Assembly (NCBI GenBank): GCA_041662125.1
Contig: JBAZTA010000001.1
Span: forward strand, 518,379-582,378
Length of the DNA: 64,000 nucleotides
Source: Candidatus Omnitrophota bacterium
GTDB lineage: Bacteria > Omnitrophota > Gorgyraeia > Gygaellales > Profunditerraquicolaceae
Direction of reading: 5' to 3'
Positions 18,693-64,000 of this stretch are shown piece after piece. A model generated the notes under the pieces. It saw only the letters and a program-made list of their open reading frames with translations. It was not told the origin of the DNA and searched no databases. How positions within the stretch are numbered: position 1 is the first letter of the stretch; every line of letters starts with the position of its first letter. Made by a program: the position numbers and the translations under genes.

Positions 18693-19157
18693 TTATAAGC
18701 GCTCTTTTTTTAAATCGCCTTTCGGGCCGATCTCGGTAACTTCTTCAATTTTAATTTTAAATATAGCACATTTCTCAGGAATACCAATCTCAAAATTTTC
18801 ATGTTTCTGTCCCCGGTAAAGCCCTTCAATAATCCGTTTAGCCGAAAGGCTGACGATCCGTTCGCTTAATTCATGAACGATCTTATCATACTGGGAGCCT
18901 TTATAGAGTATCTCAACAGGGCCGTTGACCTGAAAGCCGCTCAGAGAATTAGTATCCACAAAAGAAAGAGAAACCTTAGGATTAATCTTAAGGTTTTCCC
19001 AGGTCTTACTGAGCGTATAATCAACCAGATAAATAAAATTGTTCTCGACTTTTAAAAGAAACTTTGGCGCAGCATTAGGATGGCCATCAAAATCACAAGT
19101 CGCCACGCTGATAAATTCACGCTTTTCCAGGAATTCGATTATTTTCTTGGTGATCAT
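18693..19157 (-). CDS. Pyridoxamine 5'-phosphate oxidase-like FMN-binding split-barrel protein
   Basis: FISVATCDFDGHPNAAPKFLLKVENNFIYLV is a PNPOx-like motif. Confidence 0.7.
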   Translation of the reverse strand: MITKKIIEFLEKREFISVATCDFDGHPNAAPKFLLKVENNFIYLVDYTLSKTWENLKINPKVSLSFVDTNSLSGFQVNGPVEILYKGSQYDKIVHELSERIVSLSAKRIIEGLYRGQKHENFEIGIPEKCAIFKIKIEEVTEIGPKGDLKKERL

Positions 19158-39263: not shown

Positions 39264-40520
39264 CTACGTCCCCATCTCCCAGCTTGATAAATATTTCTTT
39301 TGCTCTTGAGTCAAAGTATCAATCCTGACTCCCATTGACTTTAATTTCAACCGGGCAATATTGGTATCGATATCTTGAGGGACCCCATAAACTTTATTCT
39401 CTAATTTCTTATAATTTTTGCTGATATATTCAGCGCTGAACGCCTGATTGGCAAAAGACATATCCATGACACTTGCAGGATGGCCCTCTGCTGCCGCAAG
39501 ATTAATTAACCGGCCTTCCCCCAAAAGATAAATCCTGCGCCCGTCTTTAAGCGTATATTCATCAACAAAATCGCGTATCATCCTTTTGTGCTTCGCGAGG
39601 CTTTCTAACCCGGGGATATCGATCTCAACATTAAAATGCCCGGAGTTAGAGACTATCGCCCCATCTTTCATGGTTTGGAAATGTTCTTTACGGATAACAT
39701 TAATATCGCCGGTGACCGTCACAAAAATATCTCCGATCTTAGCAGCATCTTTAATAGGCATGACCCCAAACCCATCCATGACAGCTTCAATAGCTTTTAA
39801 CGCCGAAACTTCCACCACAACAACATTGGCACCCATGCCTTTGGCGCGCATGGCAACACCTCTGCCGCACCAACCGTAACCGCTGACCACGACCGTACTG
39901 CCGGCTATTAATTTATTGGTCGCGCGGACTATGCCATCGATGGTCGACTGTCCCGTCCCGTAACGATTATCAAAAAAATGCTTAGTCTGGGCGTCATTAA
40001 CGGCGATGATAGGATAACGCAGCTTTCCTTCTTCTGCTAACGCCCTCAGGCGGATGACACCGGTTGTCGTTTCTTCGGTCCCGCCGATAATATTGCTATG
40101 CACCGCAGGATCACGCTTATGAATAGAACTGACAAGGTCAGCCCCGTCATCCATGGTCATCTCAGGTTTTATTCCTAAGGCCGCTTCCATATGTTTATAA
40201 TACGTCGAGGTATCTTCCCCTTTAATGGAAAACACAGCGATCTTAAGATCTTGCGCTAAAGAAGCAGCGACATCATCCTGTGTCGATAATGGATTAGACG
40301 CGCAGAGAGCAAGCTGGGCACCTCCGGCTTTTAAGACTTCCATTAAAACAGCAGTCTCGGTAGTCACATGTAAACAACAGGCGACTTTTAATCCGGCAAG
40401 CGGCTTTTCTTTCTTAAAACGCTCGGCAATAAGCTTTAAAACAGGCATATTGTTACGCGCCCATTCAATCCGTAACGCGCCTTTTTTCGCCAACTTCATA
40501 TCTTTAACATCATATTTCAT
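39264..40520 (-). CDS. ahcY: Adenosylhomocysteinase
   Basis: 418 aa with an NAD-binding [14 protein letters not shown] motif and full-length SAHH similarity. Confidence 0.93.
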
Positions 40521-40585
40521 ACGAGCTCCCTTTTAAGTATAGTATTAGAATGATACGGGTTAATGGTCAATGGACCCGGAATTCT

Positions 40586-41764
40586 TTATAAGCGCGCTGC
40601 CTGTTTCTTCAATACAGCTGATTTATCCGTTATTTCCCATTTAAATTCCGGCTCATTCCTTCCAAAGTGGCCGTAACAAGCTGTCTTGCGGTATATCGGA
40701 CGCAGCAGGTCTAATGTTTTAATGATCCCACCGGGAGTAAGGTCAAAATTCTCACGGATAAGCTTTACGAACTTCTCATCAGAAAGTTTTCCCGTGCCAA
40801 AAGTATTGACAAAAATTGACAAAGGATCTGCATAGCCGATAACGTAGGATAACTGCACCATGAATTTATCCGCCAGGCCTGCGTCAACGATATTTTTGGC
40901 AACATAACGGCACATATAGGCCGCGGAACGGTCAACTTTAGTCGGATCTTTTCCTGAAAAAGCCCCTCCGCCATGCGGAACAACACCGCCATAGGTATCA
41001 ACGATGATCTTTCGCCCCGTCATCCCGGTATCTGACTGAGGGCCGCCGATAACAAATTTCCCCGTCTGATTCACATAATACTTCGTATGCTTATCAATTA
41101 ATGCGGTCAAAACCGGCTTGGCGATCACCTCGATCATTTCCTGCCGCGCTTTATCAGTAATATGCTGGCCTGTTTTATCTAAAATATCTTCGGTGTGCTG
41201 GCAGGCAAGAACGACCGAATCAACGCGCAGCGCCTTATCATTTTCATATTCGACGGTAACCTGCGATTTGCAATCCGGGCCTAAATATTTCAAAGTCCCG
41301 TTCCTGCGCACATCAGCCATGCGTTTCACCAATCTATGCGATAGCATTATAGGAAGAGGCATAAGCTCTTCAGTTTCACGGCACGCATAACCGAACATTA
41401 TACCCTGGTCACCGGCTCCTCCGGTATTAACCCCTTGCGCGATATCAGGAGACTGGCTATTGATCGTATTAACTATAGCGCAGGTTTCATAATCAAATCC
41501 ATACTTGGGATCAGTGTAACCGATTTCCTGGATTATCCTGCGGGCGAGCTTTTGTATATCCACATACGCGGTCGTGGTAATTTCTCCTCCAACGATCAAA
41601 AGCCCCATGGTAACATACGTTTCACAGGCAACCCTGCTTTTTTCTTTATCTTTATCAGACGTTAACACCTGGTCCAAAACAGCATCGGATATCTGGTCGC
41701 AAACCTTATCCGGATGGCCTTCGCCGACCGATTCTGAAGTAAAATAATGTTTTTTCATCGTCAT
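40586..41764 (-). CDS. metK: S-adenosylmethionine synthetase
   Basis: [51 protein letters not shown] upstream of the first ATG. Confidence 0.95.
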
Positions 41765-49332: not shown

Positions 49333-49917
49333 TTATCCTCTATTAAATCGTCTTTCTTGAGGGTTATTATACATTTGCCACAAAAGCCACGCGCCTGAAC
49401 CCAGGCATACCAGCATGACCATAACCGCAATAATCCTCAATCCCCCGGCAAAAACCGCGTCAAACCGCAAAACTCCCAAACGAGTCAATAAATAATTCCA
49501 ATCATGGATAATAGGATTATCACTGCCAAACGGACTTACCAACGGCAAATCCATAGCACGAGCGTCACCCAAATATGTGGCAACTCCGAATAGATTTATC
49601 GCAAGCCATCCAAAAGATAACGAAATAGCAAAAAAGTCTTTTTGACGGTAGAAATTAAACACAGCAAAAACCGGGACTAAACACTGAGCGAGAGTCCCTC
49701 CCCAAACACCTATAAATTCGCCTAAGAAAGCAAAAATCATGTGCCCCAATTCATGTATCCCCAGGTTTAACAGGTCAAAAACAGAATGATACAAAGGGTT
49801 CATGAGATAACGGGCCAGGCAATACGCAAACCAAACCAAAAGAGGCAAACGGATCAGCCAAGACCTCCCCTTGCACCACTCAAAAGCTTCTTGACGCAGT
49901 AAATTCAAGAATTCCAT
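49333..49917 (-). CDS. Polytopic membrane protein with an HExxH motif (HELGHM), putative metalloprotease-like
   Basis: 194 aa with 5-6 predicted TMs. The HELGH sits at a TM boundary. No family was recognised confidently. Confidence 0.5.
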   Translation of the reverse strand: MEFLNLLRQEAFEWCKGRSWLIRLPLLVWFAYCLARYLMNPLYHSVFDLLNLGIHELGHMIFAFLGEFIGVWGGTLAQCLVPVFAVFNFYRQKDFFAISLSFGWLAINLFGVATYLGDARAMDLPLVSPFGSDNPIIHDWNYLLTRLGVLRFDAVFAGGLRIIAVMVMLVCLGSGAWLLWQMYNNPQERRFNRG

Positions 49918-50516: not shown

Positions 50517-51827
50517 CTACTTACACGTTGTCAAATCTTTAATAACCGTAACTACCCTTGCAACTTTACCGCCTTCTAAAATAGGGATCTTTCTTGTTTC
50601 CGTAGAAAACTTCTTATTTTTAATCTTAATCTTTTCTTTCGCAACCATGATCTTGCCGGTTTTAAACACTTTTTGATAGTCTTCACGCACGCTTTCAGAT
50701 AAGAACGGGTAAACGTCAAATAAGTGCTTGCCAATAACATGAGATTTTATCTTAAAATTCTTATTCCACTGCGTAAAAACCTTATTAACTAAAATAATAC
50801 GCAGTTGGCGGTCTACAACATAGACAGCCTCCCCCATAGAATCCAGCGTCATACGATATTGCAACTCCGATGATTTTCTTTTTTCCTCAGTAAGCTTATA
50901 TGCTGTAATATCATTCACATGGCCGTGATAATGAGTAATCCTTCCGTCACTGTCCCGGGGAACAACAATAAAAACATGCACCCATTTATACAGCCCGTCA
51001 GCGCAACGGATACGGTATTCCTCATCAAAACAGCCTGATCCCTCTTTACTATGCCCTTGGACATCTTTTTCCAATTTTTTGCGGTCATTCGGATGGATAA
51101 GGCTAGCGTAAAGTATCTTACCTTTCATAAAATCAGCCGGTTCATAGCCGAATTGCATTAATACATTTTCCGATACATATTCCACAGGCCAGCCTTCTTG
51201 AGCTTTCCACTTGAATACGACGGTCGGCCCGCTGATAAACAACTTCCTTTCAGCGTCTAACTCTTCCTGAACCCTGATACGCTTGTCAATTTCAAGATGC
51301 AGGTCTTCATTAGCTTTGCTGAGTTCTGCGGTGCGTACTTTTACCCGAATTCCCAATTCAGCCCGGGAGTTCCGTAAAGCTTCTTCCATTTTCTTGCGCT
51401 CGGTAATATCAAAAATAACTCCCACTAATCCTCCGGTAAGGCCTTCTTCATTCAGGAATGTCTCTTTATAAAAGACCACATTATGCCTGATTCCATTTTT
51501 AGAAGCAACATAGCTCTCATATTCCTGAATACCGCCTTCTTTAAATAATTCCTGGTCTTTCTTATGATAAATCTCAGCTAAATCCTTTGGGAAAAGATCG
51601 AAAACCGACTTACCCATAAGCTCATCTTTTGACAATCCGACATAACGCTCAAACTCAAGATTACACCCTAAATACCTGCCATTTGTATCTTTATAAAAAA
51701 TAGGAATGGGGATCGCATCAATAATAACCTGCAGGAAACGGAGTTGTTCCTGTGAATCAATCCGGGATTGTTCTGCATTACGCGGATCTGGCTCCGGTCC
51801 CTGGCCTGATTGTTGGTTATTCTGCAT
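50517..51827 (-). CDS. Triple-PAS-domain sensor protein without a recognisable output domain
   Basis: Three repeated PAS-like blocks (IPIPIFYKDTNGRYLGCNLEFERYVG...; VVFKWKAQEGWPVEYVSENV...; EAVYVVDRQLRIILVNKVF...) in 436 aa. Confidence 0.75.
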   Translation of the reverse strand: MQNNQQSGQGPEPDPRNAEQSRIDSQEQLRFLQVIIDAIPIPIFYKDTNGRYLGCNLEFERYVGLSKDELMGKSVFDLFPKDLAEIYHKKDQELFKEGGIQEYESYVASKNGIRHNVVFYKETFLNEEGLTGGLVGVIFDITERKKMEEALRNSRAELGIRVKVRTAELSKANEDLHLEIDKRIRVQEELDAERKLFISGPTVVFKWKAQEGWPVEYVSENVLMQFGYEPADFMKGKILYASLIHPNDRKKLEKDVQGHSKEGSGCFDEEYRIRCADGLYKWVHVFIVVPRDSDGRITHYHGHVNDITAYKLTEEKRKSSELQYRMTLDSMGEAVYVVDRQLRIILVNKVFTQWNKNFKIKSHVIGKHLFDVYPFLSESVREDYQKVFKTGKIMVAKEKIKIKNKKFSTETRKIPILEGGKVARVVTVIKDLTTCK

Positions 51828-51931
51828 ATTTACCCTTAGCTCTTCAGCCGCCTTCTTTACCTATATATGTAGCTGAGAGCCTATTATATAGTATCTTAAA
51901 TTATTATAACATTCACCTTAAGCCTGTCAAC

Positions 51932-53035
51932 CTAGATTTTAGCTCTTTTACCGGGAATCAGTGACGGATAATCTAACTTGAGCTCAAAAGGATATTCATG
52001 ATAATAATGATCCAATTTAAAGAAAAGGCTGTCTTGAGCCATTTTTTTAATGATTTTACTTAATGGTTTATCTTGCGCAGACAGAAAACCGGTATTATTC
52101 CTGACTTTTAAATATTGCGTATCAATCCCCGGGCAGATCATGGCAAGGCTGCATTTCAGGCATTCTTTATGATTATGAGCATTCTGGTTATAATTCACCG
52201 TAGGCCCTGGTTTAAAAGATGTATTTTTTCCCAAGAGCTGATTATTATTAAAAAACATCTTGTTTTTTCTTAGTTTCAACGGCAGCTCAAGGCAGAGATG
52301 TTCAAAACCGCTATACAAACAAAGCGGGAAACGGCTTATGACAACACCAATGCCGTTATTCAACGCGTATTTGAGAGCTCTTTGAAGGTAACCAGCAAAC
52401 TCATTGTAATCCGGCATAAGCCCCGGATTTTCAAAGACTCGCCCTTCAAGATTAAGCGTCTTTATATGCACCAGAAAATCCCTGCTTCCCAAGAGCTTTT
52501 TCAACAGCTTAAAAACTGCAAGTATTTTAGGAAAATTAACCGAATTTGGAATAAAATTAAAGAAAATAACCATCGTACTGCTATAATCCCTGATATTTTT
52601 TATCCCTTGGATCAATTCTTCAAATGCATCCACGCCCATAAGGGCGCGAAACATCGATCTATCATGAGCATGCACGGAAATTTCAATAGAATCAAGGTAT
52701 TTTAATATCCGGCGCGCGAATACCCGGTCAGCGAACTTAATGCCATTGGTGACTAAATACGTCTTTATACCCTGACGATGAATAAACCTCAAGATCTCCT
52801 CAAGGTCTTCCCGCAGCGTCGTCTCCCCCCCCATGAAATTGATCGCTTCAATACCCATCGATTTAAGTTTCAGCACCGTTTGCTTGATAACACTCAAATC
52901 GACATTAACCGGATGCGTATGCCGGCCTTCTGAACAAAACAGGCAAGACGCATTACAAAATGAAGTCACATTCAGGATCGCGGTCTCCCCCTTGATTTTC
53001 CTAACGCCGGTCTTGAGATCAGGTAATATGCTCAT
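51932..53035 (-). CDS. Radical SAM protein with a C-terminal SPASM/twitch-like Cys motif
   Basis: CNASCLFC (CxxxCxxC), GGETTL, and C-terminal CLKCSLAMICPG. Confidence 0.8.
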   Translation of the reverse strand: MSILPDLKTGVRKIKGETAILNVTSFCNASCLFCSEGRHTHPVNVDLSVIKQTVLKLKSMGIEAINFMGGETTLREDLEEILRFIHRQGIKTYLVTNGIKFADRVFARRILKYLDSIEISVHAHDRSMFRALMGVDAFEELIQGIKNIRDYSSTMVIFFNFIPNSVNFPKILAVFKLLKKLLGSRDFLVHIKTLNLEGRVFENPGLMPDYNEFAGYLQRALKYALNNGIGVVISRFPLCLYSGFEHLCLELPLKLRKNKMFFNNNQLLGKNTSFKPGPTVNYNQNAHNHKECLKCSLAMICPGIDTQYLKVRNNTGFLSAQDKPLSKIIKKMAQDSLFFKLDHYYHEYPFELKLDYPSLIPGKRAKI

Positions 53036-53064
53036 AATATTTTAAGGCTTCGGCCTTGGTAAAA

Positions 53065-54717
53065 TTATTTATCGGGCAGCACCCGTATATACGGTTTGTT
53101 AAGTTTAACAGAAATATCCTTGCCGATAAACTTTCCTGCCGCGTGATCACGGGTCTTAATAATAAGGGACGCGGAAGAATCACGGAATAATATAAATTTG
53201 CTTTGCATGGTATGGATTGCCTGGCCGCAATCGATAAAACAGGTTGCCGGATATTGCCTTCTCAGGCTTCCTGACGCACCATGCCCATGCACCCAGATCT
53301 CAGGCATTAACTGCCGAGGTAAAAGCTGAGTAAGCGGCAAACCGGCTTTGCCGACTTTTATCAAATCAATACGGTAATGAGAGAAGACAATCCTGATAAA
53401 ATCAACTTTCTTGTTCAAAATACTCATCAGCTTCTTAAACGTCTCCTCTGTTATCGTATCCGCAGCAACCAATTCTCTATGAGAGGGAAAAGCGTCTATC
53501 GGCAAAATAATGGAACAAATGTTGCCGTCCTCAAAAGACGAGAACAGATTATTTGAAAGATATTTACGAAAATACGCAATTTGAGGTTTCTTGTTTTTAT
53601 AGACATACTCATGATTTCCCAAAACATGTGTGATCTTTCTTCTCTCTGCACAATCGGAAAAGGCTTTTTTATACGCTGCATACGCTTTTGGCCCCTGATC
53701 GCCTTCCACCGTATCACCCACAAAGAAGCCTTTTGACCAGAAAATCGAATTACTGTCCCGCAATATCGCCCTTACCTTACCTGAATTGGTGAGCCCGGCA
53801 TGTAAATCAGCAAGGCACCAGAAAACCAGATATTTACGAGCAGCATTTATAGTATGCAACTCTCCATCACAGCCTAAGGCATCCTTGCAACCAGCACACT
53901 CATTCTTCTTACTCACCATTTTTTTAATAAGTGGAGCCAATCGTTTCTGTTTCCCGTTTTCAAAGACAAGCCTAATGTTCCCTAAATTTGCGTTTCCTGT
54001 GATTTTAAATTTATGTAAGCCTCTCACCAGGCACGGGGGGATAAAACGAAGCGCCCCTGAAGTAAAACGGGTTAAAGAAAGGTTCCTCCCTAATCTGCGG
54101 ATATCGTTATAGTCAAGCATCCTGTCCTTATCAATAACGATTTCGTTTGTAAAATCAAGATTTGAAGGCACTACCGGGCTTACCATAAAAAAATGAAGCC
54201 CTCTGGCAGCGAAGAAATCGAGCGTTTTATGGACACCGGTAATGTTATAGCGGTGGACCAGAAGGCTCCCCCCCAGCTCAACTTTTTTTCCGCGAAGGTT
54301 CTTAATACCCTGCAGGAGTTCTGCGAAACTTCCCTTTACCCCGGTAATTTTTTCATAACTCTCTTGTTTATGCGAATGAAGAGAAAAAATTATCTTGGTC
54401 AAGCCCGCCTCAATGATCCTCTCGCAGAAATCACGATAATAAAACATCCTCCCGTTGGTAAAAAGCGTTATGTTCGTAAAACCATGCCTTTGGGCCTCGC
54501 GGACATACTCGAATATATGGGGGCTAATGGTAGGTTCTGCCCCGCTCAAATCAAGGCTCTTATATCCACGCCCGGCAGCAAGCCTGATTTCTGCCAATAC
54601 AAACTTTTTGTTACTATAGCCCTGAGGAGCAACCTCACAGAAAAAACACGCATTGTTACATGCATGGGTGAACTGAATGATGATTATTTTCTTTCGGTTT
54701 TTTTCCTGAATCAACAT
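53065..54717 (-). CDS. Radical SAM - metallophosphoesterase (calcineurin-like) fusion protein
   Basis: N-terminal CNNACFFC plus SGAEPT. The C-terminal half carries all MPE motifs: ADLHAG, GDTVEGDQG, GNHEY and HGHG. The start is probably the MLIQEK Met. Confidence 0.8.
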   Translation of the reverse strand: MLIQEKNRKKIIIIQFTHACNNACFFCEVAPQGYSNKKFVLAEIRLAAGRGYKSLDLSGAEPTISPHIFEYVREAQRHGFTNITLFTNGRMFYYRDFCERIIEAGLTKIIFSLHSHKQESYEKITGVKGSFAELLQGIKNLRGKKVELGGSLLVHRYNITGVHKTLDFFAARGLHFFMVSPVVPSNLDFTNEIVIDKDRMLDYNDIRRLGRNLSLTRFTSGALRFIPPCLVRGLHKFKITGNANLGNIRLVFENGKQKRLAPLIKKMVSKKNECAGCKDALGCDGELHTINAARKYLVFWCLADLHAGLTNSGKVRAILRDSNSIFWSKGFFVGDTVEGDQGPKAYAAYKKAFSDCAERRKITHVLGNHEYVYKNKKPQIAYFRKYLSNNLFSSFEDGNICSIILPIDAFPSHRELVAADTITEETFKKLMSILNKKVDFIRIVFSHYRIDLIKVGKAGLPLTQLLPRQLMPEIWVHGHGASGSLRRQYPATCFIDCGQAIHTMQSKFILFRDSSASLIIKTRDHAAGKFIGKDISVKLNKPYIRVLPDK

Positions 54718-54730
54718 GTGTAACCCTGCG

Positions 54731-55858
54731 CTATTGTGCTCTCTCCGCATAATGATAAAAACACCCCTTACAACCGGGAGAAAGGCTCTTGGAAAACAAG
54801 GCTCTTACCTTTTGCGCCTGCCTGCCATTCCAGATTTCTGAAAATGAATGCTCCTTGATATTTCCGATAAAAACATCGTGACAGACATAAATATCGCCAT
54901 TAGGCATAACGTTGACCTGATGCCAGGGAGCTGTACAATACCGGCAATAATGCAAGGCTCCCCGGTTATCTTTATAATACGGGATTATCTCATCCGGATA
55001 CAGGTCAGGGCTAAAAGATACCGCGCGGAGCTTTTTAACTTTCCTGATCTCGGCAATAAATCGGGAGAAATCAATATACCCCGGAGAATAGGTATATCCC
55101 GGCCAAAGCTCAAGCGCCGTAATATTAAGTTTATCACGCAAGAACTTTTCTTGCATTTTCAATGTCTGCCGGTTTATGAACATCAAATGCTGAAAATGGT
55201 AATTGTCAACCGCAATGCCGGCATTCTGCATGAATGCAATGAACTCTCCCATATGCGCATAACTCAGGTCTGAAATAGTATATAACATATTTAAACGCGG
55301 GCGGTTTGCATGCTTTTTCTTATACAGCGTAAGGGCGGCTAAGCCCTTTACAATCGTCTTAAAATGAGCGGGAGAATCTTCCCTGATCAGATGAAGGATC
55401 GACGGCGGCCCCCCCAGGGAGAGGCTAACCTGGTCTAATACCCGAACAGCCTTATCCATGTTTTTTAAAAGATAGACTCCGTTTGTGGTAACAGAAACCC
55501 GCACCCCTTGTTTTTTGAAACACTGAGCCAGATTGTACCAGTGCGCAGACAACAATGGTTCCCCTCCGGAGAAAGTCACTGTTTTAGGATGAAACGCCAT
55601 TACTTCTTGTGCGAATCTTTCCAAATCTTCCTGGCTTAAAGAAGCTTTATATTTGTTAAGAAACCCTTTTTTTCTGCACGGCCCTTTGATCCCCCACCAT
55701 GAGCAAACTTTACAGCGCAGGTTACAGCGAAGCGAGAACATGATGTAAACTTCCCCTACAGAGGTAGCCTTCAACAAGTCACTACTGGCTCTTCCCTTAA
55801 GCGATAAAGCCAAGGCTTGTGTATCTACTGTTAAATCAAGCATCGCGCCTCCTTGCAT
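54731..55858 (-). CDS. Radical SAM / SPASM-domain protein
   Basis: CNLRCKVC, SGGEPLL, and C-terminal CRYCTAPW...CHDV...GCKGC SPASM-like cysteines. Confidence 0.82.
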   Translation of the reverse strand: MQGGAMLDLTVDTQALALSLKGRASSDLLKATSVGEVYIMFSLRCNLRCKVCSWWGIKGPCRKKGFLNKYKASLSQEDLERFAQEVMAFHPKTVTFSGGEPLLSAHWYNLAQCFKKQGVRVSVTTNGVYLLKNMDKAVRVLDQVSLSLGGPPSILHLIREDSPAHFKTIVKGLAALTLYKKKHANRPRLNMLYTISDLSYAHMGEFIAFMQNAGIAVDNYHFQHLMFINRQTLKMQEKFLRDKLNITALELWPGYTYSPGYIDFSRFIAEIRKVKKLRAVSFSPDLYPDEIIPYYKDNRGALHYCRYCTAPWHQVNVMPNGDIYVCHDVFIGNIKEHSFSEIWNGRQAQKVRALFSKSLSPGCKGCFYHYAERAQ

Positions 55859-57822
55859 CCCGGCTGCTTAATCGGAAAATACATTTCTGAGTGAAAAAAT
55901 TCCCGGAACAATTCCTCTCGCATAAGGCTATTCACGACAATTTCTTTTTTCCGCGAGCCGCGCTTATATACATTGATGACACGCAATAATGCGGTGTCAA
56001 GATCACACAGAAAAATCTTATTGTGACGCAACCAACCAACATCGCCGATAAGACTGGCTTCTTTGAGCCTTCGGAAACGTTTAGAAAAAACAAGGTTGCC
56101 GCAGAGATACACCTTTCCTTGCCCATCAACGGTAATATCAGTTGAGGCAGCTCCAAAAACGCCGGGGATTCCACAGTTCAATATCGAAACGCCCTTACGA
56201 AAATAAAGGTCTCTGCTTATTTTAAAAAGAGATACCAGGGCGCAGGCTACAGAAGAAGCATCATACAAGATACCGGGATCATAAGAAAATCTTATTTTCC
56301 TGACCCCCTGCTTGATCAAAAAAGAAATATCTTCCTCAAAACCCTCAAGATGCAAAAAAGGCACGTCCTGTATAACCCCAAAATCACTGCCGTTTTTCTT
56401 CAAAAGTTTTATTAATCCCGATATCTGCCGCTTAAAGGCGATATTCTTTACTGATGCGTGGATACCCCCACCTATTTTCAAAAGACATAAAACACGGTGC
56501 CGCAACAGGAAATTAATTTTATCTTCGTCTAAAAACAACCCCCCAGTAACCAGCGTACAAGAAACCTGCTTACGGGAAGACTTCTTTTTTTGCTGAACAT
56601 AACTAAGAGCTGCCTTGATCATTTCAAAATGCGCCAGCGGCTCTGCTCCGGAAAACTCCAGTTCAAAGCTCTCTTGCGAAGAAGTAAAAAGCATATCAAT
56701 AGACTTCTTCAAAACATCTTCACGCATACCCGGGCCGATCATCAGAGAAACTTTACCGAAAGAGCGATACCAGCCGGCATGGATACTCTGAGCGCGAGGC
56801 TGTTTTTCGAAAAGGGAATATTCTTGGCGCAAATGATTGAATTTATATAAAAACTCTGCGGCAATACCCATATACAGAATATGCATAAATTTCTGATGCA
56901 AACTCCGGGCGTATCTACGGATTATCGCTGCCTGCTTACCTTTAGTCATTTTTAAAGCTGTCAAATCCTTACAGTCATCGAGCTTGCCAAAATAAAAAAT
57001 ACGGTTTAATTCCGGGTATGCCCTCTCCAATACCAGCGCACACCCGATATATATCGATCCTGAGGCAGTTATGCTGATCTGAGGGCAATAAAAAACCGGT
57101 TCGCAATCTACGTCAAAATTTATGATCCGCGCGGTATGTCCATGCACTGATTTTAACAAAAACCCGAGCTCTGTAATATATCCGAGAAAATCCTGTCGCG
57201 AATATTTCTGCCCCAACGCATACGCTATCCAGATACGCCGTATCCCTTTTTTGATGAGAAAATCAATATTTTTACGCATAAGCGGGATATCTTCGCTCAA
57301 AACCACCATACTGACAAAATACCGGGCTTTATGCTTATTCAACAGGCCGATATTACGCAGTACCGTATTGAAATACTCTTTATTGCCTCCTATCATCGGC
57401 CTGTTCTTTAACTGCGTCAGCCGCGCGCCGTCGATACTGACCATGATCTCGACTTTTTCCCGCGTCAAAAAACCGATCTTCTCTTCATCCAAGAGCAGGC
57501 CATTAGTAGTGAGTAAATATGTAATTCTTTTACCGGTAGCCCTTTTTCTTTGGCCCGCATAATACAGTGCTTTCTGGATCAGGTCGAACCGCATAAGAGG
57601 CTCGCCGCCAAAGAACTGCAGTTCAACTTTTTTCTCAGGAGAAGTAAACAACAGATCAATAGACTTCTTCAAAACATCTTCCGGCATATCCGGCTGAGTG
57701 CGGTTAAGAAAACAATACCGGCAGGACAGCGGACAGCGGGTAGTAAGCAATAAAGCAACATTACGGATGCTTGACGGCTCTTTAAAGCGCGTGAAATTCA
57801 CGGGTTCCATATTTACGGGCAT
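55831..57822 (-). CDS. Internally duplicated radical SAM (anSME/SPASM-twitch-like) protein. The first half has CPLSCRYC; the second half has a degenerate cluster motif.
   Basis: Halves align (PEDVLKKSIDLLFTSPEKKVELQFFGGEPL versus REDVLKKSIDMLFTSSQESFELEFSGAEPL). A 27-nt identical DNA segment, atcaatagacttcttcaaaacatcttc, occurs at both ~56690 and ~57655. The start is uncertain because the ORF-track start overlaps the upstream gene by 188 nt. Confidence 0.78.
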   Translation of the reverse strand: MPVNMEPVNFTRFKEPSSIRNVALLLTTRCPLSCRYCFLNRTQPDMPEDVLKKSIDLLFTSPEKKVELQFFGGEPLMRFDLIQKALYYAGQRKRATGKRITYLLTTNGLLLDEEKIGFLTREKVEIMVSIDGARLTQLKNRPMIGGNKEYFNTVLRNIGLLNKHKARYFVSMVVLSEDIPLMRKNIDFLIKKGIRRIWIAYALGQKYSRQDFLGYITELGFLLKSVHGHTARIINFDVDCEPVFYCPQISITASGSIYIGCALVLERAYPELNRIFYFGKLDDCKDLTALKMTKGKQAAIIRRYARSLHQKFMHILYMGIAAEFLYKFNHLRQEYSLFEKQPRAQSIHAGWYRSFGKVSLMIGPGMREDVLKKSIDMLFTSSQESFELEFSGAEPLAHFEMIKAALSYVQQKKKSSRKQVSCTLVTGGLFLDEDKINFLLRHRVLCLLKIGGGIHASVKNIAFKRQISGLIKLLKKNGSDFGVIQDVPFLHLEGFEEDISFLIKQGVRKIRFSYDPGILYDASSVACALVSLFKISRDLYFRKGVSILNCGIPGVFGAASTDITVDGQGKVYLCGNLVFSKRFRRLKEASLIGDVGWLRHNKIFLCDLDTALLRVINVYKRGSRKKEIVVNSLMREELFREFFHSEMYFPIKQPGCKEARCLI

Positions 57823-60013
57823 ACGCGGACCAGACTCCTTCGCACCAGCCATTTTCTTTGCATGATGCGCAAAATTTAAACTTGCGTTTCTTTGACAAAC
57901 GTTGTTTAGAACACTCACGCAAGGCACTCCCAAGCGTAATGACTTCGTCAAACGGACGATATGGCTCAAAAGCGCGCGCGCGTAATTGAGCTAATGAGCA
58001 TAAAGGAAACCCTTCAAAATACAATTTCTGGATGAATTCCGGCAGCTCAACGCATATCCGCTGGAGCTGACGCATAACTTCCGATATCGCAGGAAGAGCG
58101 TTTTTTGGAACCTGAATATGGCCTAATGAATTGCTTACGAAAACCAGATGTAATTCATCAACACCCAGCTTGAGCAAAACCGAACAACATTCAAACAACG
58201 AGTCAAGATTAGCGTTAGTGATAACGATATCCGCCTGGATAGAAAGGCAACGCGCGTTTTCCCTGATATTCCTGATCCCGGTAATTGCCTGGCGGAAAGA
58301 ACCGGGGACTCTGCTTATCTGATCATGGACAGGCCCCAGCCCAAAAAAAGGGATGATAACTTTTTCTAAAGAAGTAAAACCGTTCAATACTTTAACCAGT
58401 CCCGGATACGATAACATACGCGCATTGGTGTATAAGAAAAGGTTATGCATTTCCAATTCGTCGCAATAGCGCAATATATCCCTCATATCTTTTCTTAATA
58501 ACGGCTCTGCGCCTGCCAAAACAACATACTCCCCCCTGCTCTTAACAAGCTCTAACTCAGATTTTATCTGCTTGAGGCTTTTTTTCACCCGGCGGCTTTC
58601 TTTAACCAACGAGCAAAACGCGCAATTATTATTACAGGTATTTGAAATTTGGATGATACTCATCCGGGGCTTTATCATGTTAGATAGTTCTTTAAGCTTT
58701 TTTTCGCTATGCTCAAGGGTAAAAGCAGGAGGACAATGGTTGGAACCTAGATAATACTTTTTCGGGAGCAAACCTCTTTCTTCAAAGATATCATGGATCC
58801 GCGTCATCGGATAGACCTTGACAATATTCACTAAAAGGTTGTCCGGATTACAATCACGCACATAATAGGCGGTTTCCCTTATCGTCTCCTCTGTTTCACC
58901 CAAATTCCCGACCATAAGCATAAGCACGGTACGTATCCCCGCTCGCGCGGTAAGCTTTAAAGCCTTTTTCGACTTAATTAAATCGAGGTTCTTGCCAATT
59001 GAACGTTGAATCTCTCCCGATGCGCTCTCTAAACCATACGATATCTCAAAACAGCCGGCCTGCGCCATAAAAGCAAGTAAGGGCGCGTCAACCGAATCAG
59101 AACGTGTCATACACGTCCAGCTTATGGTAAGCCCTGCTTGCATGATCCCTTTACATATTGCGATAACTCTGCGCCTGTCCCGGGTAAAGAAATTATCCCC
59201 AAAGACAAAATTCTTAATCTTGAACTTTTTATGGAAATAAGCGACCATCGCGACAAAATACTCAGGGCTATGAAACCGCATTTTGTCCTGGATCACCTTA
59301 CTCATCGGGCAGAAATTACAGCTATACACACAGCCGCGGGAAGAAAGCAATAAAAGGGCGTTGCGGAAGCTCGTGCAACGTTTCCCCAGGATAAAGTTCC
59401 TTTTGGCTGAAATAGTATCCAAACAGTTGATCTTATCCTGAAATCCGCTAAAAAGATGAAATGCCGGGTATGGCAGGGAATCCAGGTCGGTAATACCACG
59501 CCGATCTTCGGTGCGTAACACTTTTCTGCCCTGCCGATACGCTATCCCATCAATAGCGCTGATATCCCCTCCTTTTGTTTTAAGGCAGCAGACTAATTCA
59601 AGAAAGGACTGCTCGCCTTCTCCGATAACGATATAATCAACCGGAAAATGCTTCAGGAGAAACTCATATTTATCTGTCGCAAACGGCCCACCGAGAATAA
59701 TGATTGCCAGGGGCGCGGCATCTTTTATCGTTTTGATCAACTCATAGACCGGTCCGCGCGTGCAGCTTTGAATGGTGATACCGATATAACGGGGCCTGGT
59801 TTTCAGTATCCGCCTGAAGCTTTTAAGCATCACCGGCACCGGCTCAAGGTCAAAATCATAGACACTGACAGGGATATGATTTTTAAGCAAAGAGGCGGCA
59901 ATCAAACTGATCCCATACGCAGGGCCGAAGTAATTTGGCGCCGGGTCCGGGTTCGTCGGGTTTACGAGGACTATTTCATGCTTAGAAAATTTATTTCGCA
60001 GGCTCATGATCAT
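57782..60013 (-). CDS. B12-binding-domain radical SAM fused to a second radical SAM domain (743 aa)
   Basis: N-terminal B12-binding-like Rossmann region, first cluster motif CVYSCNFC and a second CNNNCAFC with AGAEPLL in the C-terminal half. Confidence 0.82.
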   Translation of the reverse strand: MIMSLRNKFSKHEIVLVNPTNPDPAPNYFGPAYGISLIAASLLKNHIPVSVYDFDLEPVPVMLKSFRRILKTRPRYIGITIQSCTRGPVYELIKTIKDAAPLAIIILGGPFATDKYEFLLKHFPVDYIVIGEGEQSFLELVCCLKTKGGDISAIDGIAYRQGRKVLRTEDRRGITDLDSLPYPAFHLFSGFQDKINCLDTISAKRNFILGKRCTSFRNALLLLSSRGCVYSCNFCPMSKVIQDKMRFHSPEYFVAMVAYFHKKFKIKNFVFGDNFFTRDRRRVIAICKGIMQAGLTISWTCMTRSDSVDAPLLAFMAQAGCFEISYGLESASGEIQRSIGKNLDLIKSKKALKLTARAGIRTVLMLMVGNLGETEETIRETAYYVRDCNPDNLLVNIVKVYPMTRIHDIFEERGLLPKKYYLGSNHCPPAFTLEHSEKKLKELSNMIKPRMSIIQISNTCNNNCAFCSLVKESRRVKKSLKQIKSELELVKSRGEYVVLAGAEPLLRKDMRDILRYCDELEMHNLFLYTNARMLSYPGLVKVLNGFTSLEKVIIPFFGLGPVHDQISRVPGSFRQAITGIRNIRENARCLSIQADIVITNANLDSLFECCSVLLKLGVDELHLVFVSNSLGHIQVPKNALPAISEVMRQLQRICVELPEFIQKLYFEGFPLCSLAQLRARAFEPYRPFDEVITLGSALRECSKQRLSKKRKFKFCASCKENGWCEGVWSAYARKYGTREFHAL

Positions 60014-60035
60014 CTCTTATGTAATCAGCACGCTC

Positions 60036-63000
60036 TCATCCCTCAAAAAAACATGCTTTACAGGTAACATTCAAGTGCCGGCAGCCGCGGCAAAACTTTC
60101 TGCCGGGAACATTCTTACCTCTTTTTTGACAAGTGATCTTTAAACAATAGTCGCAATCACGCGGCACATAATAAGTATACCAAGACTCGCCGAAATCCAA
60201 CAAACATTTCGGTATAGGCTTATAGACTAAAAACACACCATGCCGGCGCCGCAAAGACAAATAGCGCCTTATTTGTTTAAGCGCGGCAAGGTCAATATCC
60301 TCTTGCCTTATCTTAAAGTCAATCACTTCAAAACCACATGTTTCTTTTTTCCGGGCCTTGATCGCATGCATATCCGCGCTTATATCTTTAAAACTGACCG
60401 GCCTGACATACGGCGCTAACGCCGATTTAAATTCTTTCAGCAAAAACTTAGATTTCGACTCAAAAAAAGAACTGGTATAGTTATACGTAAAAACCTTTTC
60501 AAGAAAATCAGTAGTCAACTCGGGGCTTGCGCACGGCCATACAGAAGGATGAAGTTCGCTCAAACTACGAGAGGAAAACTCAGACTCATATTTCCTAAAT
60601 ACCCCGGTATTCGGAATAGGAGTAAAGGCATTAAACTTAACCGCTACCGCGCATTTCCATAACTCGATAATGGTATTAATTATTTCCTGCCGGCTCTGAT
60701 CCGGCAAGCCGATAAGCACAAATGCCGAAAGCTGATTGTCGCGCAAATACATGCGCGGCCTCCTTTTTTCAGCTTTACGCAGAGACATCCCCCGCAGCGC
60801 AGGATTATACCAGCCAACACTCTTTAAATTTGAAACCGCCGTATAGAACCCCGTATTCCCTCGGGGCCGCAGGTATACTTTCGGGAACGAACGGGCAGAA
60901 ACCTCAAAAGCAAGACAAACTTGTTTTACATGCGCACGCAACAACTTCCTTGCCACACCTTTAGAAATAAAATCTGGCTGTAGCCCCTCAGGAAATTCAA
61001 TTTCCATTTTGAACTTGAGATCAATAAGCCTTTGCAGAAAATCATCAAAATAGGTATTCTTGGCCCCGAAAACATTGGATTCCCAGAAAGTAAATGTGCG
61101 GACACCGTACTTCTCATACTTCTGCCTGATCTCATCCATAACAAGGTCAAGAGAACGAAAATATGTTTTCTTGCCTTCAATAAAGGGAACCGCGCAGTAG
61201 GTGCATGAATTAACACAGCCGCGGCTGAATTTGATCACTGCCATTTTCTTAGAAAAATTGGCAAGCAAATTAAAACTAGCCTGATAGTTATCAGCGTGAT
61301 AAAAGACACCCACAAACACTTCAACCCCCAATTTCCTGACAAGAGGAGCGCATAAAGACGCTAAAATCCCTCCCACGCAGATAACCGCTCCGGGAAACTT
61401 TTTCTGAGCTGCCGTAACAATCTGGCGAACAAAATCATATTCATAAGTGAATTGCGAAGTAATAAAGATCTCATCAGGCTCACCTGCCGCTTCAAGACGT
61501 TTTAAGAATTCTACCAAAGGGGTACCCCGGCGATACAATTTCTTTTTTCTCTTCTCTTGCGCAAAATTACCGCATTGCACCGATTTAAAAAAGTAGGATT
61601 CCTTTAAAGTATCCTCCCAACAGTCTGCCAAACAATCAATAAGGCTAATCCGATGCCCGCGATCTTTTAGAAAAGCCCCGATTTTAAGTAAACCAGCGGG
61701 TTCTTCAGAATAGAGATCAGCCATCCCTTCCCCTTGCATTGTAGGAGGCCTGATTAAAAGATATTTCTTGTTTTTGGAAGATACGATCCTTTTCGTGATT
61801 TCGTAATTATCCCGCTTCTCATTGAATTTATCCGCATAGGCAATGCTTAAGCTGATAAATTCATCATAAAGCATTCCGCCTTCAGAAGAATACGGCAAGG
61901 AAAACGACCGGGTATCATACGCGTTTGTCTCCGGCTGCCTCAGCCTGAAGCCTTTTTGATGAGAATAAATAGAGGTATTCCTGCCAAAAGCGAAATACTG
62001 AGGAATAATACCGGATATTTTCTCCCTCCGGAACAATACATATTCCCATGTCTCAATATATTCCCTTTTTTCCTGGAATGGATAACTCATAATAAATAAA
62101 TCAATCTTCATGCCTGCCTCAAGGGCGGAATCAAGGAAACGGTCTAATGCAAGAAGGTCAATGCCTTTACGCAGCGTATTCAGGAATTCCTGGTTTGAAG
62201 TTTCAAGACCAACAGCCATAAAAGTAGCGCCCGAGCGTTTCAACAATAAGAACTCCGCAGGTGTTATCGGGTAATCCGCGCGGATCAAACAATCCCACTG
62301 AACCTTGATTTTACGTTTTATGATCTGCTCAGCGACTTTCAATAAAAGCGGTACAGGCGTTGAGGAATCAGCAAACGTAAAGGCCTTCAGGGAATACCTT
62401 TTTTGCAGGCTTTCGATTTCATTGATAATCCTCTCAACACTCTTCTGACGCATGATCGTCTTATCATTGATATGGTGGCAAAACCTGCACTTATGCCAAT
62501 AGCAGCCTTTTGTGGTCGATACCGGTAACGCACGAGAAACATCGTGTTTGGAGATACAATGGTCAAAATCACCCAGCGGCAAATCATTGAGAGGAACTAT
62601 CTCTGCATCTCCGGTATCAATAAGTGATCGGCCTGAAAGGAAAACTAACCCCTTAATCGATCTTAATTCTTGAGGCGGCGCGCCTTTTTTTAACGCATTG
62701 ATCAAACTCAATAAAGGGACTTCTCCTTCCCCGTTTACGACGAAATCGACAAAATCAAAGATCTGCTTGAAATTTGACAGCTCAGCCCTCGAACAAATAC
62801 ACCATGCCCCGCCTATAACAATACGGGTTGCGGGAAAACGCTCCTTTATTTTTCTGGAAAAATACAGCGCGCTGCCTAACTGTAACGGCGTTAACACGGA
62901 AAATCCCACAACCGCTGCCTTTTGCGCCAAAGCAAAAACATGGTGTTGGAGAAAAAAATCAAACAAGGGGTCATCCTGCTTAAGAAGAACCGCCATTTTC

Positions 63001-63431
63001 CTTATATCGTATTCATTATTGGTAATACTGACTAATTCACCCAGCAGCCGCATGCTTTCTTCTTGGATAAAATTATAGGTATTAAGAAAACACCGTTTAA
63101 AATCAAGCTCAATAAAAGTTTCCTTATCGATAGAACGAAACAGTGGATGGCCGCCTCGGGAAGCAATACGGGAACTAACCCGGTCTGAAAAAAGCTTTTT
63201 GTAACGAGGGAGGAATTCATTCATAAAAACAATGTTGAGATCGAACGCTTCGGCTGCCACGCCATTCTTCTTCAGAAAACCGCTCAACTGCGGAAGGCCA
63301 AGTTCGGGAATAGTAAATTGAAATCCGGGAGGAGGAAACAACAAAAGACAATCAAGCGTATGCGCTACATCCATATTTTCCCCTTCATTATTCCTACTTT
63401 TCCCTACCTGCATAAATACACAAACGGGCAA
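60036..63431 (-). CDS. Tandem B12-binding radical SAM didomain protein (1131 aa) with a Cys-rich C-terminal tail
   Basis: Two B12-binding-like modules, each followed by a radical SAM core: CYWHKCRFC (Cx4Cx2C spacing) and CVNSCTYC. The C-terminus carries CDYC...C..RG....C.GC....C.AC. Confidence 0.8.
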   Translation of the reverse strand: MPVCVFMQVGKSRNNEGENMDVAHTLDCLLLFPPPGFQFTIPELGLPQLSGFLKKNGVAAEAFDLNIVFMNEFLPRYKKLFSDRVSSRIASRGGHPLFRSIDKETFIELDFKRCFLNTYNFIQEESMRLLGELVSITNNEYDIRKMAVLLKQDDPLFDFFLQHHVFALAQKAAVVGFSVLTPLQLGSALYFSRKIKERFPATRIVIGGAWCICSRAELSNFKQIFDFVDFVVNGEGEVPLLSLINALKKGAPPQELRSIKGLVFLSGRSLIDTGDAEIVPLNDLPLGDFDHCISKHDVSRALPVSTTKGCYWHKCRFCHHINDKTIMRQKSVERIINEIESLQKRYSLKAFTFADSSTPVPLLLKVAEQIIKRKIKVQWDCLIRADYPITPAEFLLLKRSGATFMAVGLETSNQEFLNTLRKGIDLLALDRFLDSALEAGMKIDLFIMSYPFQEKREYIETWEYVLFRREKISGIIPQYFAFGRNTSIYSHQKGFRLRQPETNAYDTRSFSLPYSSEGGMLYDEFISLSIAYADKFNEKRDNYEITKRIVSSKNKKYLLIRPPTMQGEGMADLYSEEPAGLLKIGAFLKDRGHRISLIDCLADCWEDTLKESYFFKSVQCGNFAQEKRKKKLYRRGTPLVEFLKRLEAAGEPDEIFITSQFTYEYDFVRQIVTAAQKKFPGAVICVGGILASLCAPLVRKLGVEVFVGVFYHADNYQASFNLLANFSKKMAVIKFSRGCVNSCTYCAVPFIEGKKTYFRSLDLVMDEIRQKYEKYGVRTFTFWESNVFGAKNTYFDDFLQRLIDLKFKMEIEFPEGLQPDFISKGVARKLLRAHVKQVCLAFEVSARSFPKVYLRPRGNTGFYTAVSNLKSVGWYNPALRGMSLRKAEKRRPRMYLRDNQLSAFVLIGLPDQSRQEIINTIIELWKCAVAVKFNAFTPIPNTGVFRKYESEFSSRSLSELHPSVWPCASPELTTDFLEKVFTYNYTSSFFESKSKFLLKEFKSALAPYVRPVSFKDISADMHAIKARKKETCGFEVIDFKIRQEDIDLAALKQIRRYLSLRRRHGVFLVYKPIPKCLLDFGESWYTYYVPRDCDYCLKITCQKRGKNVPGRKFCRGCRHLNVTCKACFFEG

Positions 63432-64000
63432 TATTCACAGTAACGGCTGTCTTCTTCATCCGCCTTAAAGGCGACTTCGGGGTCAAAGATTTCCTGGATA
63501 ATAAAATCCAGCGCCGAAATATAAGCCCCCATTATTTTATTTTTAGACAAAAGCTGTTCTTCATTCTTAAAAAGCATACGCAAACCATGATCTTTTCCCA
63601 GTTCCTTGATCAGATAAAGGCAGGCATTGGTCGTCTTCCTTTTATATTCCTTATTTTCTTCAACCAGAAAAAGATATAACGGCAGCTGTATTGATTTCAG
63701 GATATGCTTAACCGTAAGCCTGCTCCAAAGCACCTGCTGCGCCACATGCTCATCCAAAGAAGGCAGAATATCAGCACTACCGGTCTTATAATCAAGCACA
63801 AGTATAGTACCATCTGCGGTAACATCAATCCGGTCAATAACCGCTTGAAATTTAACCAGCCCCGAAGAGAGTCGAATTGCCGTCTTAAAGGATTCTTCCA
63901 ACCCGATAATTCGCTGGATGTCTCTTTTTCTTTCATTCTCCAGGAAGCGTTCCAAGCGAAAAATAAGGATCTCTTTGATAAGGAAGGCGTCAGATTTCAT
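63404..64000 (-). CDS. PD-(D/E)XK nuclease, Cas4/RecB(AddB)-like with a C-terminal Fe-S Cys cluster. It is partial, with the N-terminus beyond the window end.
   Basis: IDRIDV...VLDYKTG (RecB-family motifs II/III) and a C-terminal CEYCPFVYLC, a CxxC-x5-C as in Cas4/AddB. The ORF runs off the 3' edge of the window. Confidence 0.7.
   Translation of the reverse strand: MKSDAFLIKEILIFRLERFLENERKRDIQRIIGLEESFKTAIRLSSGLVKFQAVIDRIDVTADGTILVLDYKTGSADILPSLDEHVAQQVLWSRLTVKHILKSIQLPLYLFLVEENKEYKRKTTNACLYLIKELGKDHGLRMLFKNEEQLLSKNKIMGAYISALDFIIQEIFDPEVAFKADEEDSRYCEYCPFVYLCR

Follow-up and report, generated by a model that had tools for sequence, protein, structure and literature searches.

What substrate would call for six consecutive radical S-adenosylmethionine (SAM) genes in one bacterial operon? 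This question is raised by a gene cluster of a Candidatus Omnitrophota bacterium that lies at positions 51932-63431 on the minus strand of the window analyzed here (the whole stretch of 64,000 nucleotides from contig JBAZTA010000001.1, assembly GCA_041662125.1). Its six contiguous radical SAM (rSAM) genes are numbered P6 to P1 in the direction of transcription, and related loci carry L-numbers. We read the operon as a cobalamin (B12)-enriched, phosphoesterase-bearing orphan variant of an extended His-Xaa-Ser (Hxs)-type peptide-maturation cluster, because its enzymes come from Hxs lineages and Hxs parts are found again and again beside their orthologues in other genomes. As the window holds no precursor, HxsD or leader peptidase, the substrate would be encoded elsewhere. 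That the operon matures an HxsA4-type peptide encoded elsewhere in the genome is about an even bet (probability roughly 0.5), and that its substrate is a ribosomal peptide or protein of any kind is rather likely.

The reference point for this reading is the HXS system of E. coli, where the HxsA effector is matured by HxsB, HxsC and HxsD and then keeps phage DNA from entering the cell (Li et al., Nat Commun 2026, PMC13128918). Maturation of this periplasmic effector involves N-terminal processing and a +8 Da change in a SHRSS motif, and canonical HXS comprises four genes in the order D-B-C-A, found to 99.7% in Pseudomonadota (PMC13128918). For comparison we used the models HxsA/B/C/D (TIGR03976-03979; HxsD as TIGR03976/PF27806) together with HxsA4 (NF038313) and HxsC4 (NF038332), which are curated in NCBIfam.

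ORF listing and translation recovered all seven minus-strand open reading frames (ORFs) at the coordinates given in a first-pass annotation made from the bare sequence. Its core proposal, six consecutive rSAM genes in one tight operon with B12, SPASM and phosphoesterase fusions, was borne out by Pfam matches, gene packing and conserved synteny. Its estimate of about ten rSAM domains came down to the eight that exceed the Pfam cut-off across P1-P6 (PF04055, 29.5 bits; whole proteins and halves searched), and its eight canonical CxxxCxxC motifs to seven, which together with the single Cx4Cx2C variant, as reported, give eight cluster motifs. A ninth module, the C-terminal half of P4, shows neither the Pfam domain nor the Cys motif. 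In total, the operon encodes three B12-binding domains (one weak), one SPASM domain, an intact metallophosphoesterase fused to an rSAM domain and a duplicated rSAM module that has degenerated. Curated NCBIfam cut-offs were reached by none of the six proteins. Using starts supported by Shine-Dalgarno sequences, database annotation or orthologues, the genes are separated by gaps of 11-29 nt, with one P5/P4 overlap that recurs in the related locus L001; the other start/stop overlaps noted before had arisen because longest-ORF starts were chosen. For example, the addB stop codon TAG (63404-63406) is followed by GAAGGGG 6 nt ahead of ATG 63374, leaving a 29-nt gap and no overlap. The packing nevertheless appears tight enough for one operon.

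Locus L001 (JBAZKL010000004.1, from another Omnitrophota metagenome-assembled genome, MAG) contains all six genes in identical order with 66-85% amino acid identity. Between the window and L001, dN/dS is 0.10-0.26 for all six genes, compared to 0.11-0.17 for their neighbours, and the Fe-S motifs are kept without exception (8/8), as are the phosphoesterase motifs. Purifying selection and retention of the Fe-S motifs thus argue that all six genes are functional.

The first two proteins supply the B12-type modules. P6 (60036-63431, minus strand) fuses two B12-binding/rSAM modules and ends in a Cys-rich tail; it probably starts at ATG 63374, giving 1112 aa rather than the 1131 aa annotated before. 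Pfam scored its N-terminal half at 40.8 bits for rSAM and 20.7 bits for B12-binding, the latter under the 32.1 cut-off, and its C-terminal half at 37.5 and 33.3 bits. The N-terminal module carries the variant motif CYWHKCRFC (Cx4Cx2C), the C-terminal one CVNSCTYC. Since the two halves are mutually dissimilar in sequence, P6 would be a fusion of two different B12-type modules, not a tandem duplication; of the tandem B12-rSAM didomain described earlier, the two rSAM modules were confirmed, and the N-terminal B12 domain scored under the cut-off. The best NCBIfam match of P6 was TIGR03975, a C-methyltransferase of peptides made by the ribosome and modified after translation (RiPPs), at 146.8 bits vs a cut-off of 281.85, and an orthologue was found in L001 only (76% identity). 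The nearest genome matches of the N-terminal B12 module outside Omnitrophota (L002-L012, ~25% identity) came from Candidatus Delongbacteria and Gastranaerophilales/Vampirovibrio MAGs, and some of these loci (L006, L011) have several such genes. P5 (57782-60013, minus strand) joins a B12-binding/rSAM module to an HxsC-like rSAM module, in line with the B12-rSAM plus rSAM fusion proposed before (Pfam: B12-binding 51, rSAM 67.8, second rSAM 52.1 bits). The former module has the motif CVYSCNFC, and the latter has CNNNCAFC and ends in CxxCx5C. NCBIfam placed the N-terminal module of P5 nearest to BchE (151 bits, cut-off 481) and ApyD (137); P5 also scored 87.7 bits for HxsC4 and 59.6 for HxsC, and all these scores are under the cut-offs. 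P5 has a full-length orthologue in L104 (536 bits), where it is fused to a P1-like domain, and a partial one in L015. Taking a PF02310 match of at least 32.1 bits N-terminal to the rSAM domain as the mark of class B, both P5 (51) and the C-terminal half of P6 (33.3) are predicted cobalamin-binding rSAM enzymes.

P4 (55831-57969, minus strand; start probably at or after 57852) combines a PapB/CteB/HxsB-like rSAM module with a degenerate copy of itself. Its N-terminal half matched rSAM at 55.6 bits and has the motif CPLSCRYC, and its C-terminal half had no Pfam match. The internal duplicate (31% identity over 244 residues, E = 4e-32) aligns from just past the position of the Cys triad, and the copy lacks the triad; in the L104 orthologue both triads are kept. 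For the two halves, dN/dS is 0.21 (N-terminal) and 0.31 (C-terminal). The earlier description of P4 as a duplicated anSME-like enzyme thus holds for the duplication, but the second half has no Cys triad and the anSME score is only 98 bits vs 349. Higher scores were obtained for PapB (176, cut-off 340), CcpM (156), nif11 (152), HxsB (148.4, cut-off 370), QhpD (144) and SCIFF (139, cut-off 425), so that the PapB, SCIFF and anSME equivalog cut-offs all lie above P4. The nearest solved structure was CteB (5wgg, E = 3e-21), and by these profile and structure comparisons P4 appears clearly nearest to peptide maturases. P3 (54731-55858, minus strand; probable start 55843) is an rSAM protein with a SPASM/twitch domain, as had been annotated: it scored 51.3 bits for rSAM and 51.7 bits for SPASM (PF13186, cut-off 21.5) and has the motif CNLRCKVC. 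Its orthologues occur in L015 (38% identity) and L104 (258 bits).

P2 (53065-54750, minus strand) unites an HxsC-like rSAM domain (67.5 bits, motif CNNACFFC plus a 4-Cys auxiliary site) with a metallophosphoesterase domain, which matched PF00149 at 21.5-23.6 bits vs a cut-off of 21.5. The gene probably starts at 54717, and a 100% identical public record (P0001, 550 aa) begins there as well. We found the five phosphoesterase motifs (DxH, GD, GNH[ED], H, GH) intact in P2 and invariant in its orthologues, and PF00149 was matched by 6/6 aligned orthologues with a best E value of 3.1e-13, which upheld the rSAM-metallophosphoesterase fusion of the first-pass annotation. In Foldseek, the AlphaFold2 model of P2 (pLDDT 84.6) retrieved generic twitch-type rSAM structures, and its C-terminal half matched the purple acid phosphatase 7ov8; BlsE, GDGT-MAS, viperin and DesII also appeared in the structure search beside peptide maturases. 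A profile search of the PDB with the phosphoesterase domain gave no meaningful match. In NCBIfam, P2 scored 74.6 bits for HxsC and 72.1 bits for HxsC4. An index of 5.8 billion proteins contained four real P2 homologues, and when 1.84 billion representative proteins were searched exhaustively by HMMER with only the phosphoesterase domain as query, 13 reached E <= 1e-3, among them eight of P2 architecture (~513-551 aa) and two stand-alone secreted phosphoesterases. Two P2 orthologues, P0020 (L019, 10001-11623) and P0021 (L018, 433-2058), have lost the CxxxCxxC triad and keep the four auxiliary Cys residues and all phosphoesterase motifs, making them natural pseudo-rSAM forms of the fusion. Given this pattern of loss and retention, the phosphoesterase/auxiliary-cluster part seems to be the constant function of the P2 family.

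P1 (51932-53035, minus strand) is an HxsC/MoaA-like rSAM protein with a Pfam rSAM score of 75.8 bits and the motif CNASCLFC. It had been taken for an rSAM-SPASM enzyme, an assignment that did not hold, as Pfam detected no SPASM domain in P1, in P2 or in the C-terminal domain of P5. What P1 does have is a conserved C-terminal extension and four extra Cys residues (239, 292, 295 and 301) that are invariant in the alignment and would suit an auxiliary cluster of twitch type. A C-terminal CxxCx5C and one upstream Cys are common to P1, P2 and the C-terminal domain of P5, and these four residues are invariant in the P1 and P2 families. The rSAM, B12 and SPASM domains called from the bare sequence are supported above the Pfam cut-offs, except for the N-terminal B12 domain of P6, the second rSAM module of P4 and the SPASM domain of P1. 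P1 scored 69 bits for HxsC and 59.7 bits for HxsC4, and all three proteins or domains gave about equal scores to HxsC/HxsC4, archaeal MoaA and other twitch-type enzymes. In the 5.8-billion-protein index, the P1 family has 7 members including the window's own sequence, that is, six homologues, and in relatives P1 always adjoins P2 or is fused nearby. Both families are extremely rare. Looked up by exact sequence, P6 (with two different starts), P5 and P0001 gave no entry. No relative was found on viral contigs, and literature searches brought up no account of rSAM arrays in Omnitrophota, of rSAM-phosphoesterase fusions or of extended Hxs clusters.

The genomic context of these rare families connects the operon with Hxs maturation. 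A genome-neighbourhood comparison, as the first-pass annotation had suggested, revealed that the P2-P1 pair recurs in ~10 lineages as the conserved core of clusters of very different size. Eight lineages have at least 3.5 kb of context, and four of these contain Hxs parts (L015 and L104 above curated cut-offs, L018 by local phmmer only, and L019, which was not run against the curated models); a fifth has an A24-type leader peptidase only. Such a peptidase occurs in L016, L018, L019 and L020. The content of L104 (GCA_964395775.1, CAYNCD010000003.1) is nearest to that of the window: its orthologues of P5 (fused to the P1-like domain, which scored 137 bits), P2 (191 bits), P4 (247 bits) and P3 all lie within 10 kb of an HxsA4 gene. 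Next to them, the opposite strand encodes an HxsC-like protein, a Cys-rich secreted protein and a peptide of 88 aa, MAELPKIKKRVGSFLLNEEGKV...HCS(HGS)7HGQW, which scored 55.7 bits for HxsA4 vs a cut-off of 55. The most extended relative is L015 (Candidatus Omnitrophica, GCA_003451585.1, DMEU01000006.1, locus 1-21074), with 15 complete consecutive same-strand rSAM genes and a sixteenth cut by the locus end over ~20 kb. The array contains at least 17 Cys triads and runs past the end of the locus. It opens with HxsD (67.5 bits, cut-off 50) and HxsB (493.6 bits, cut-off 370), which are followed by a secreted Cys-rich protein and a 95-aa HxS-repeat peptide ending ...HASHPSHTSHGSHGQW.

The remaining clusters are built from overlapping sets of parts. 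In L019, at least nine rSAM genes precede an A24-like protein, P2, P1, HxsD (annotated as PF27806) and a gene resembling HxsB (phmmer score of 466 bits with the HxsB of L015); L018 consists of an A24-like protein, P2, P1 and an HxsD-like gene fragment. L016 has at least ten rSAM genes, including P2 and P1, followed by a Peptidase_A24 protein (34.6 bits, cut-off 26.5), and L017 likewise has at least ten. Precursor genes beside maturases were encountered in L015, L104, L039 and L051, with HxsA4 scores of 37.4, 55.7, 70.2 and 52.7 bits, respectively. The modules are fused differently from locus to locus (B12 with HxsC-like, B12 with P4-like, P4-like with HxsC-like, P5 with P1-like), which argues that the B12-, P4- and HxsC-type modules are functionally linked and act on one substrate. 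The nearest metagenomic paralogues of P1 reside in clusters with a true HxsB, several HxsC-like genes, an A24-like gene, HxsD and HxS-repeat peptides, and these peptides have a common "S/N-EEGK" leader. A metagenome scan with the P1 alignment, which captures generic rSAM patterns, returned mostly paralogues and one new P2-P1 locus, L024.

Several features of these loci stand apart from the Hxs parts. The secreted Cys-rich proteins of L104 (15078-16112, minus strand) and L015 (2834-3607, plus strand) each lie beside an HxsA4-type peptide gene, in two unrelated arrangements, belong to no detectable family and show no significant mutual similarity. A 397-aa protein without Pfam or NCBIfam match heads the L104 cluster (547-1740, plus strand); its C-terminal ...GGSLHCVTLDV may resemble the catalytic Cys region of enzymes of the amidinotransferase/arginine deiminase type. 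The L015 array includes a MiaB-like (UPF0004) methylthiotransferase-type gene. In L017, a 5-formyltetrahydrofolate cyclo-ligase gene (7204-7773) and a 37-codon ORF (12790-12903) without counterpart in the other loci are interspersed among the rSAM genes, and in L019 a full-length bacterial 16S rRNA gene (17303-18945, 1363 bits) lies 0.5 kb downstream of the rSAM/Hxs cluster and offers a taxonomic marker for this lineage. The rSAM proteins of ~460-500 aa in L013, L019 and L104 were tentatively labelled HemN-like by their CxxxCxxCxC motif; Pfam returned only Radical_SAM for them.

Comparison with known systems delimits what the operon could be. Like HXS, it pairs a PapB/HxsB-type SPASM rSAM enzyme with HxsC-type enzymes, and orthologues or paralogues of its genes adjoin HxsD, HxsB and HxsA4 elsewhere. 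In contrast to HXS, the window lacks HxsA, HxsD and any protein at the HxsB or HxsC cut-offs and so qualifies for membership on no count; it has eight rSAM domains rather than two, adds three B12-type modules, a SPASM enzyme and a phosphoesterase, and belongs to Omnitrophota instead of Pseudomonadota. The HxsA4/HxsC4 group resembles it in that the precursors of relatives pass or approach the HxsA4 cut-off and that HxsC4 is the best or near-best model for P2, P5 and several relatives, but the HxsC4 scores are 72-158 bits vs a cut-off of 500, and the window has no HxsA4. The proteusin pathway of polytheonamide (PoyB/PoyC/PoyD) and the ranthipeptide/SCIFF systems (PapB, CteB) similarly combine cobalamin-dependent C-methyltransferase-like enzymes with other peptide-directed rSAM enzymes, and P4 is nearest to PapB/CteB and P6 to TIGR03975. 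However, the window scores stay under the family cut-offs, no nitrile-hydratase-like or Cys-rich precursor is present in the window, and the clusters described here hold far more rSAM domains (8 in the window, at least 17 in L015). Finally, rSAM clusters for lipids (Tes, Mss, GrsA/B, Hbs, Hgm and ladderane candidates) share the combination of B12-rSAM and SPASM/twitch genes without a precursor gene, whereas the window scores far under their models and its orthologues adjoin peptide-system parts, not lipid genes.

Taken together, the six-gene operon may constitute a multi-enzyme machine for the radical post-translational modification of a ribosomal peptide or small protein, derived in evolution from an extended Hxs maturation system. 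In this machine, P4 would be the HxsB/PapB/CteB-type module, the HxsC-type modules would be P1 and one domain each of P2 (N-terminal) and P5 (C-terminal), and P3 would act as a SPASM/twitch enzyme. The three cobalamin-type modules of P5 and P6 could carry out C-methylations or other B12-dependent radical steps, and the phosphoesterase domain of P2 may cleave a phosphoester bond of the substrate or of an intermediate. As substrate, an HxsA4-type peptide would be the likeliest, basic at its N-terminus and with the 'EEGK' leader motif, a hydrophobic stretch and (His-Gly-Ser)n repeats at the C-terminus; the enzymes would act on it in trans. Its purpose might be defence, as in HXS, or metal binding by the His repeats. 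In its boldest form, which we put forward tentatively, the operon and its relatives would represent the peptide maturation pathway richest in rSAM enzymes known so far, in which a His-Gly-Ser repeat peptide becomes heavily modified in at least eight distinct radical steps, three of them cobalamin-type and one by a unique rSAM-phosphoesterase fusion; in this genome the enzymes would have been split from their precursor, HxsD and leader peptidase, acting in trans or re-targeted to a new substrate.

A number of observations weigh against an Hxs-type assignment. A six-frame search of the window for at least three H-x-S in 30 residues retrieved a single 29-codon stretch (5252-5338) that we judged to be chance; the 64 kb contain no His/Gly/Ser-rich stretch and no A24-like ORF, a hidden Markov model (HMM) of the 'EEGK' leader found no real match in the window (best E = 18), and phmmer searches of all its ORFs with two HxsD sequences gave no match. 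Within +/-10 kb in L001/L021, no HxS-repeat ORF, leader, HxsD or A24-like ORF was detected either. An HxsD profile search returned nothing from contigs of 646,436 bp (which carries P0001 and P0008, 100% identical to P2 and P1) or 365,851 bp, a weak negative, as the L015 HxsD itself was not listed. P4 stays under the HxsB cut-off (TIGR03978), and P1, P2 and P5 do not reach those of HxsC (TIGR03977, at least 267.9 bits) or HxsC4 (at least 500). No Hxs-linked cluster has a P6 orthologue, the smallest relative, L013, consists of a TPR protein, one other rSAM gene, P2 and P1, and we know of no role for a phosphoesterase in Hxs or RiPP chemistry. Moreover, no RiPP recognition element (PqqD-like domain) was detected. 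As the first-pass annotation had stated, the 64-kb window has no precursor, protease or exporter; its suggestion of a precursor just beyond position 64000 was not supported by L001, whose upstream 10 kb encode AddB, AddA, ribosomal protein L28, RecJ and ArgRS, and no precursor candidate was found in the window or within +/-10 kb in L001.

The empty surroundings suit a small-molecule pathway, the strongest competitor but an improbable one, in which the operon would act on a membrane lipid, a cofactor or a phosphorylated or nucleotide-derived metabolite, with the phosphoesterase dephosphorylating an intermediate. B12-rSAM and SPASM/twitch enzymes do modify lipids, and Omnitrophota have been reported with Mss and Hbs homologues (bioRxiv 10.1101/2023.10.20.563219). 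P1 and P2 score alike to MoaA, viperin and HxsC models, the structure search placed BlsE, GDGT-MAS, viperin and DesII beside peptide maturases, and the minimal cluster L013 has no Hxs part. Every lipid, cofactor or nucleotide model nevertheless remained far under its cut-off (Tes 40 vs 450, TIGR04072 of ladderane B12 enzymes 115 vs 360, HpnJ 116 vs 578, BchE 151 vs 481, MoaA 74.5 vs 325, viperin 60.7 vs 180), P4 is clearly nearest to peptide maturases, and the orthologues repeatedly adjoin HxsD, HxsB, HxsA4 and a leader peptidase. Among the substrates guessed at the outset, the RiPP thus gained support from the neighbourhoods of relatives, while the lipid and phosphonate models scored far under their cut-offs. 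PADLOC matched every rSAM protein to its viperin models only generically, and a viperin-like role was rejected in view of the low NCBIfam viperin score.

Somewhat less probable still is that Hxs-derived enzymes were re-targeted to another ribosomal product unlike HxsA, be it a peptide or a protein, such as a larger protein whose gene lies elsewhere. Full-length proteins are the substrates of some rSAM maturases, among them the methylases of methyl-coenzyme M reductase and the anaerobic sulfatase maturase. HxsD, a true HxsB and the leader peptidase have been lost from the operon, the two-module P6 has been gained in this lineage alone, and the P4 duplicate is degenerate, all of which would fit a change of substrate; yet no candidate substrate emerged, and in L104 orthologues of 4/6 genes coexist with an HxsA4 peptide. 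That the cluster is a decaying leftover of a larger rSAM array without function, or that unrelated rSAM genes came together by chance, is very unlikely: the missing Hxs accessory parts and the Cys triads lost from the second half of P4 and from P0020 and P0021 are outweighed by neighbour-like purifying selection in all six genes, by the cluster and phosphoesterase motifs and gene order kept in L001, and by fusions that connect the module types.

The function of Hxs was assigned only recently, and in uncultured bacteria including Omnitrophota its two-enzyme core is expanded to arrays of 6 to more than 15 rSAM genes, with cobalamin-type modules, Rosetta-stone fusions and a fusion to a phosphoesterase that few sequences worldwide share. 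If the substrate is indeed a peptide, these clusters would be a source of new radical peptide chemistry on His/Gly/Ser repeats, and the L104 cluster with its 88-aa precursor would offer a defined experimental entry point. If it is not, the operon would be an unassigned rSAM pathway of eight domains that purifying selection maintains in a little-known phylum with reduced genomes, and would still merit study.

The genes on either side appear to lie outside the system. Upstream, the ORF at 63404-64000 (minus strand, 198 codons) matched PDDEXK_1 at 68.9 bits over profile positions 96-247 only and shares 84% identity with residues 751-948 of an L001 protein of 948 aa that comes after a UvrD-type helicase of 1059 aa. 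The partial profile span, the L001 match and the helicase neighbour indicate that the window end truncates an AddB-type repair protein here, leaving its C-terminal PD-(D/E)XK/Fe-S domain as this ORF. A Cas4-like nuclease, as it had been called, can be discarded: the Cas4 model TIGR00372 gave 20.6 bits vs a cut-off of 65, and the ORF is the C-terminus of a 948-aa protein, not a stand-alone protein of ~180-220 aa. Downstream, a consensus sigma-70-type promoter (51903-51930, minus strand; TTGACA, 16 nt, TGtTATAAT; 12/12 matches, extended -10) follows directly after the P1 stop, reading from 51930 to 51903, in the 104-nt gap ahead of a PAS gene. It would mark the 3' boundary of the rSAM operon, and the PAS gene (50517-51827, minus strand) is probably a separate transcription unit. 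Pfam and NCBIfam identified three PAS domains and no output domain in its product. The PAS gene is present in the window and L001, where it is followed by a DUF3568 lipoprotein and a membrane protein, and is absent from the other related clusters. With the adjacencies to AddAB and to the PAS protein confined to these two loci, we rejected a functional link to either, and with it the view that nuclease and PAS sensor flank the operon for a functional reason.

Housekeeping genes fill the remainder of the window, comprising dnaB, prs, glmU, ispE, transketolase, PFOR, ilv/leu genes, pfk, ptsI, metK, ahcY, rpsB, tsf, pyrH, frr and tRNAs; neither tandem repeats nor Rfam elements other than tRNAs were detected in it. 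Adjoining metK and ahcY genes (39264-41764, minus strand) lie ~10 kb downstream of an operon expected to use much SAM, which is probably coincidental. A membrane protein of 194 aa that carries an HELGH motif and belongs to no Pfam family (49333-49917, minus strand) is encoded two genes downstream of the PAS gene and has a counterpart of 76% identity in L001, with no relative noticed in the other related clusters. A DUF4140/DUF4139 protein is encoded both in the window (37539-39227, minus strand) and in L013 (11203-12867), which hints that L013 derives from a related genome with partly shared synteny.

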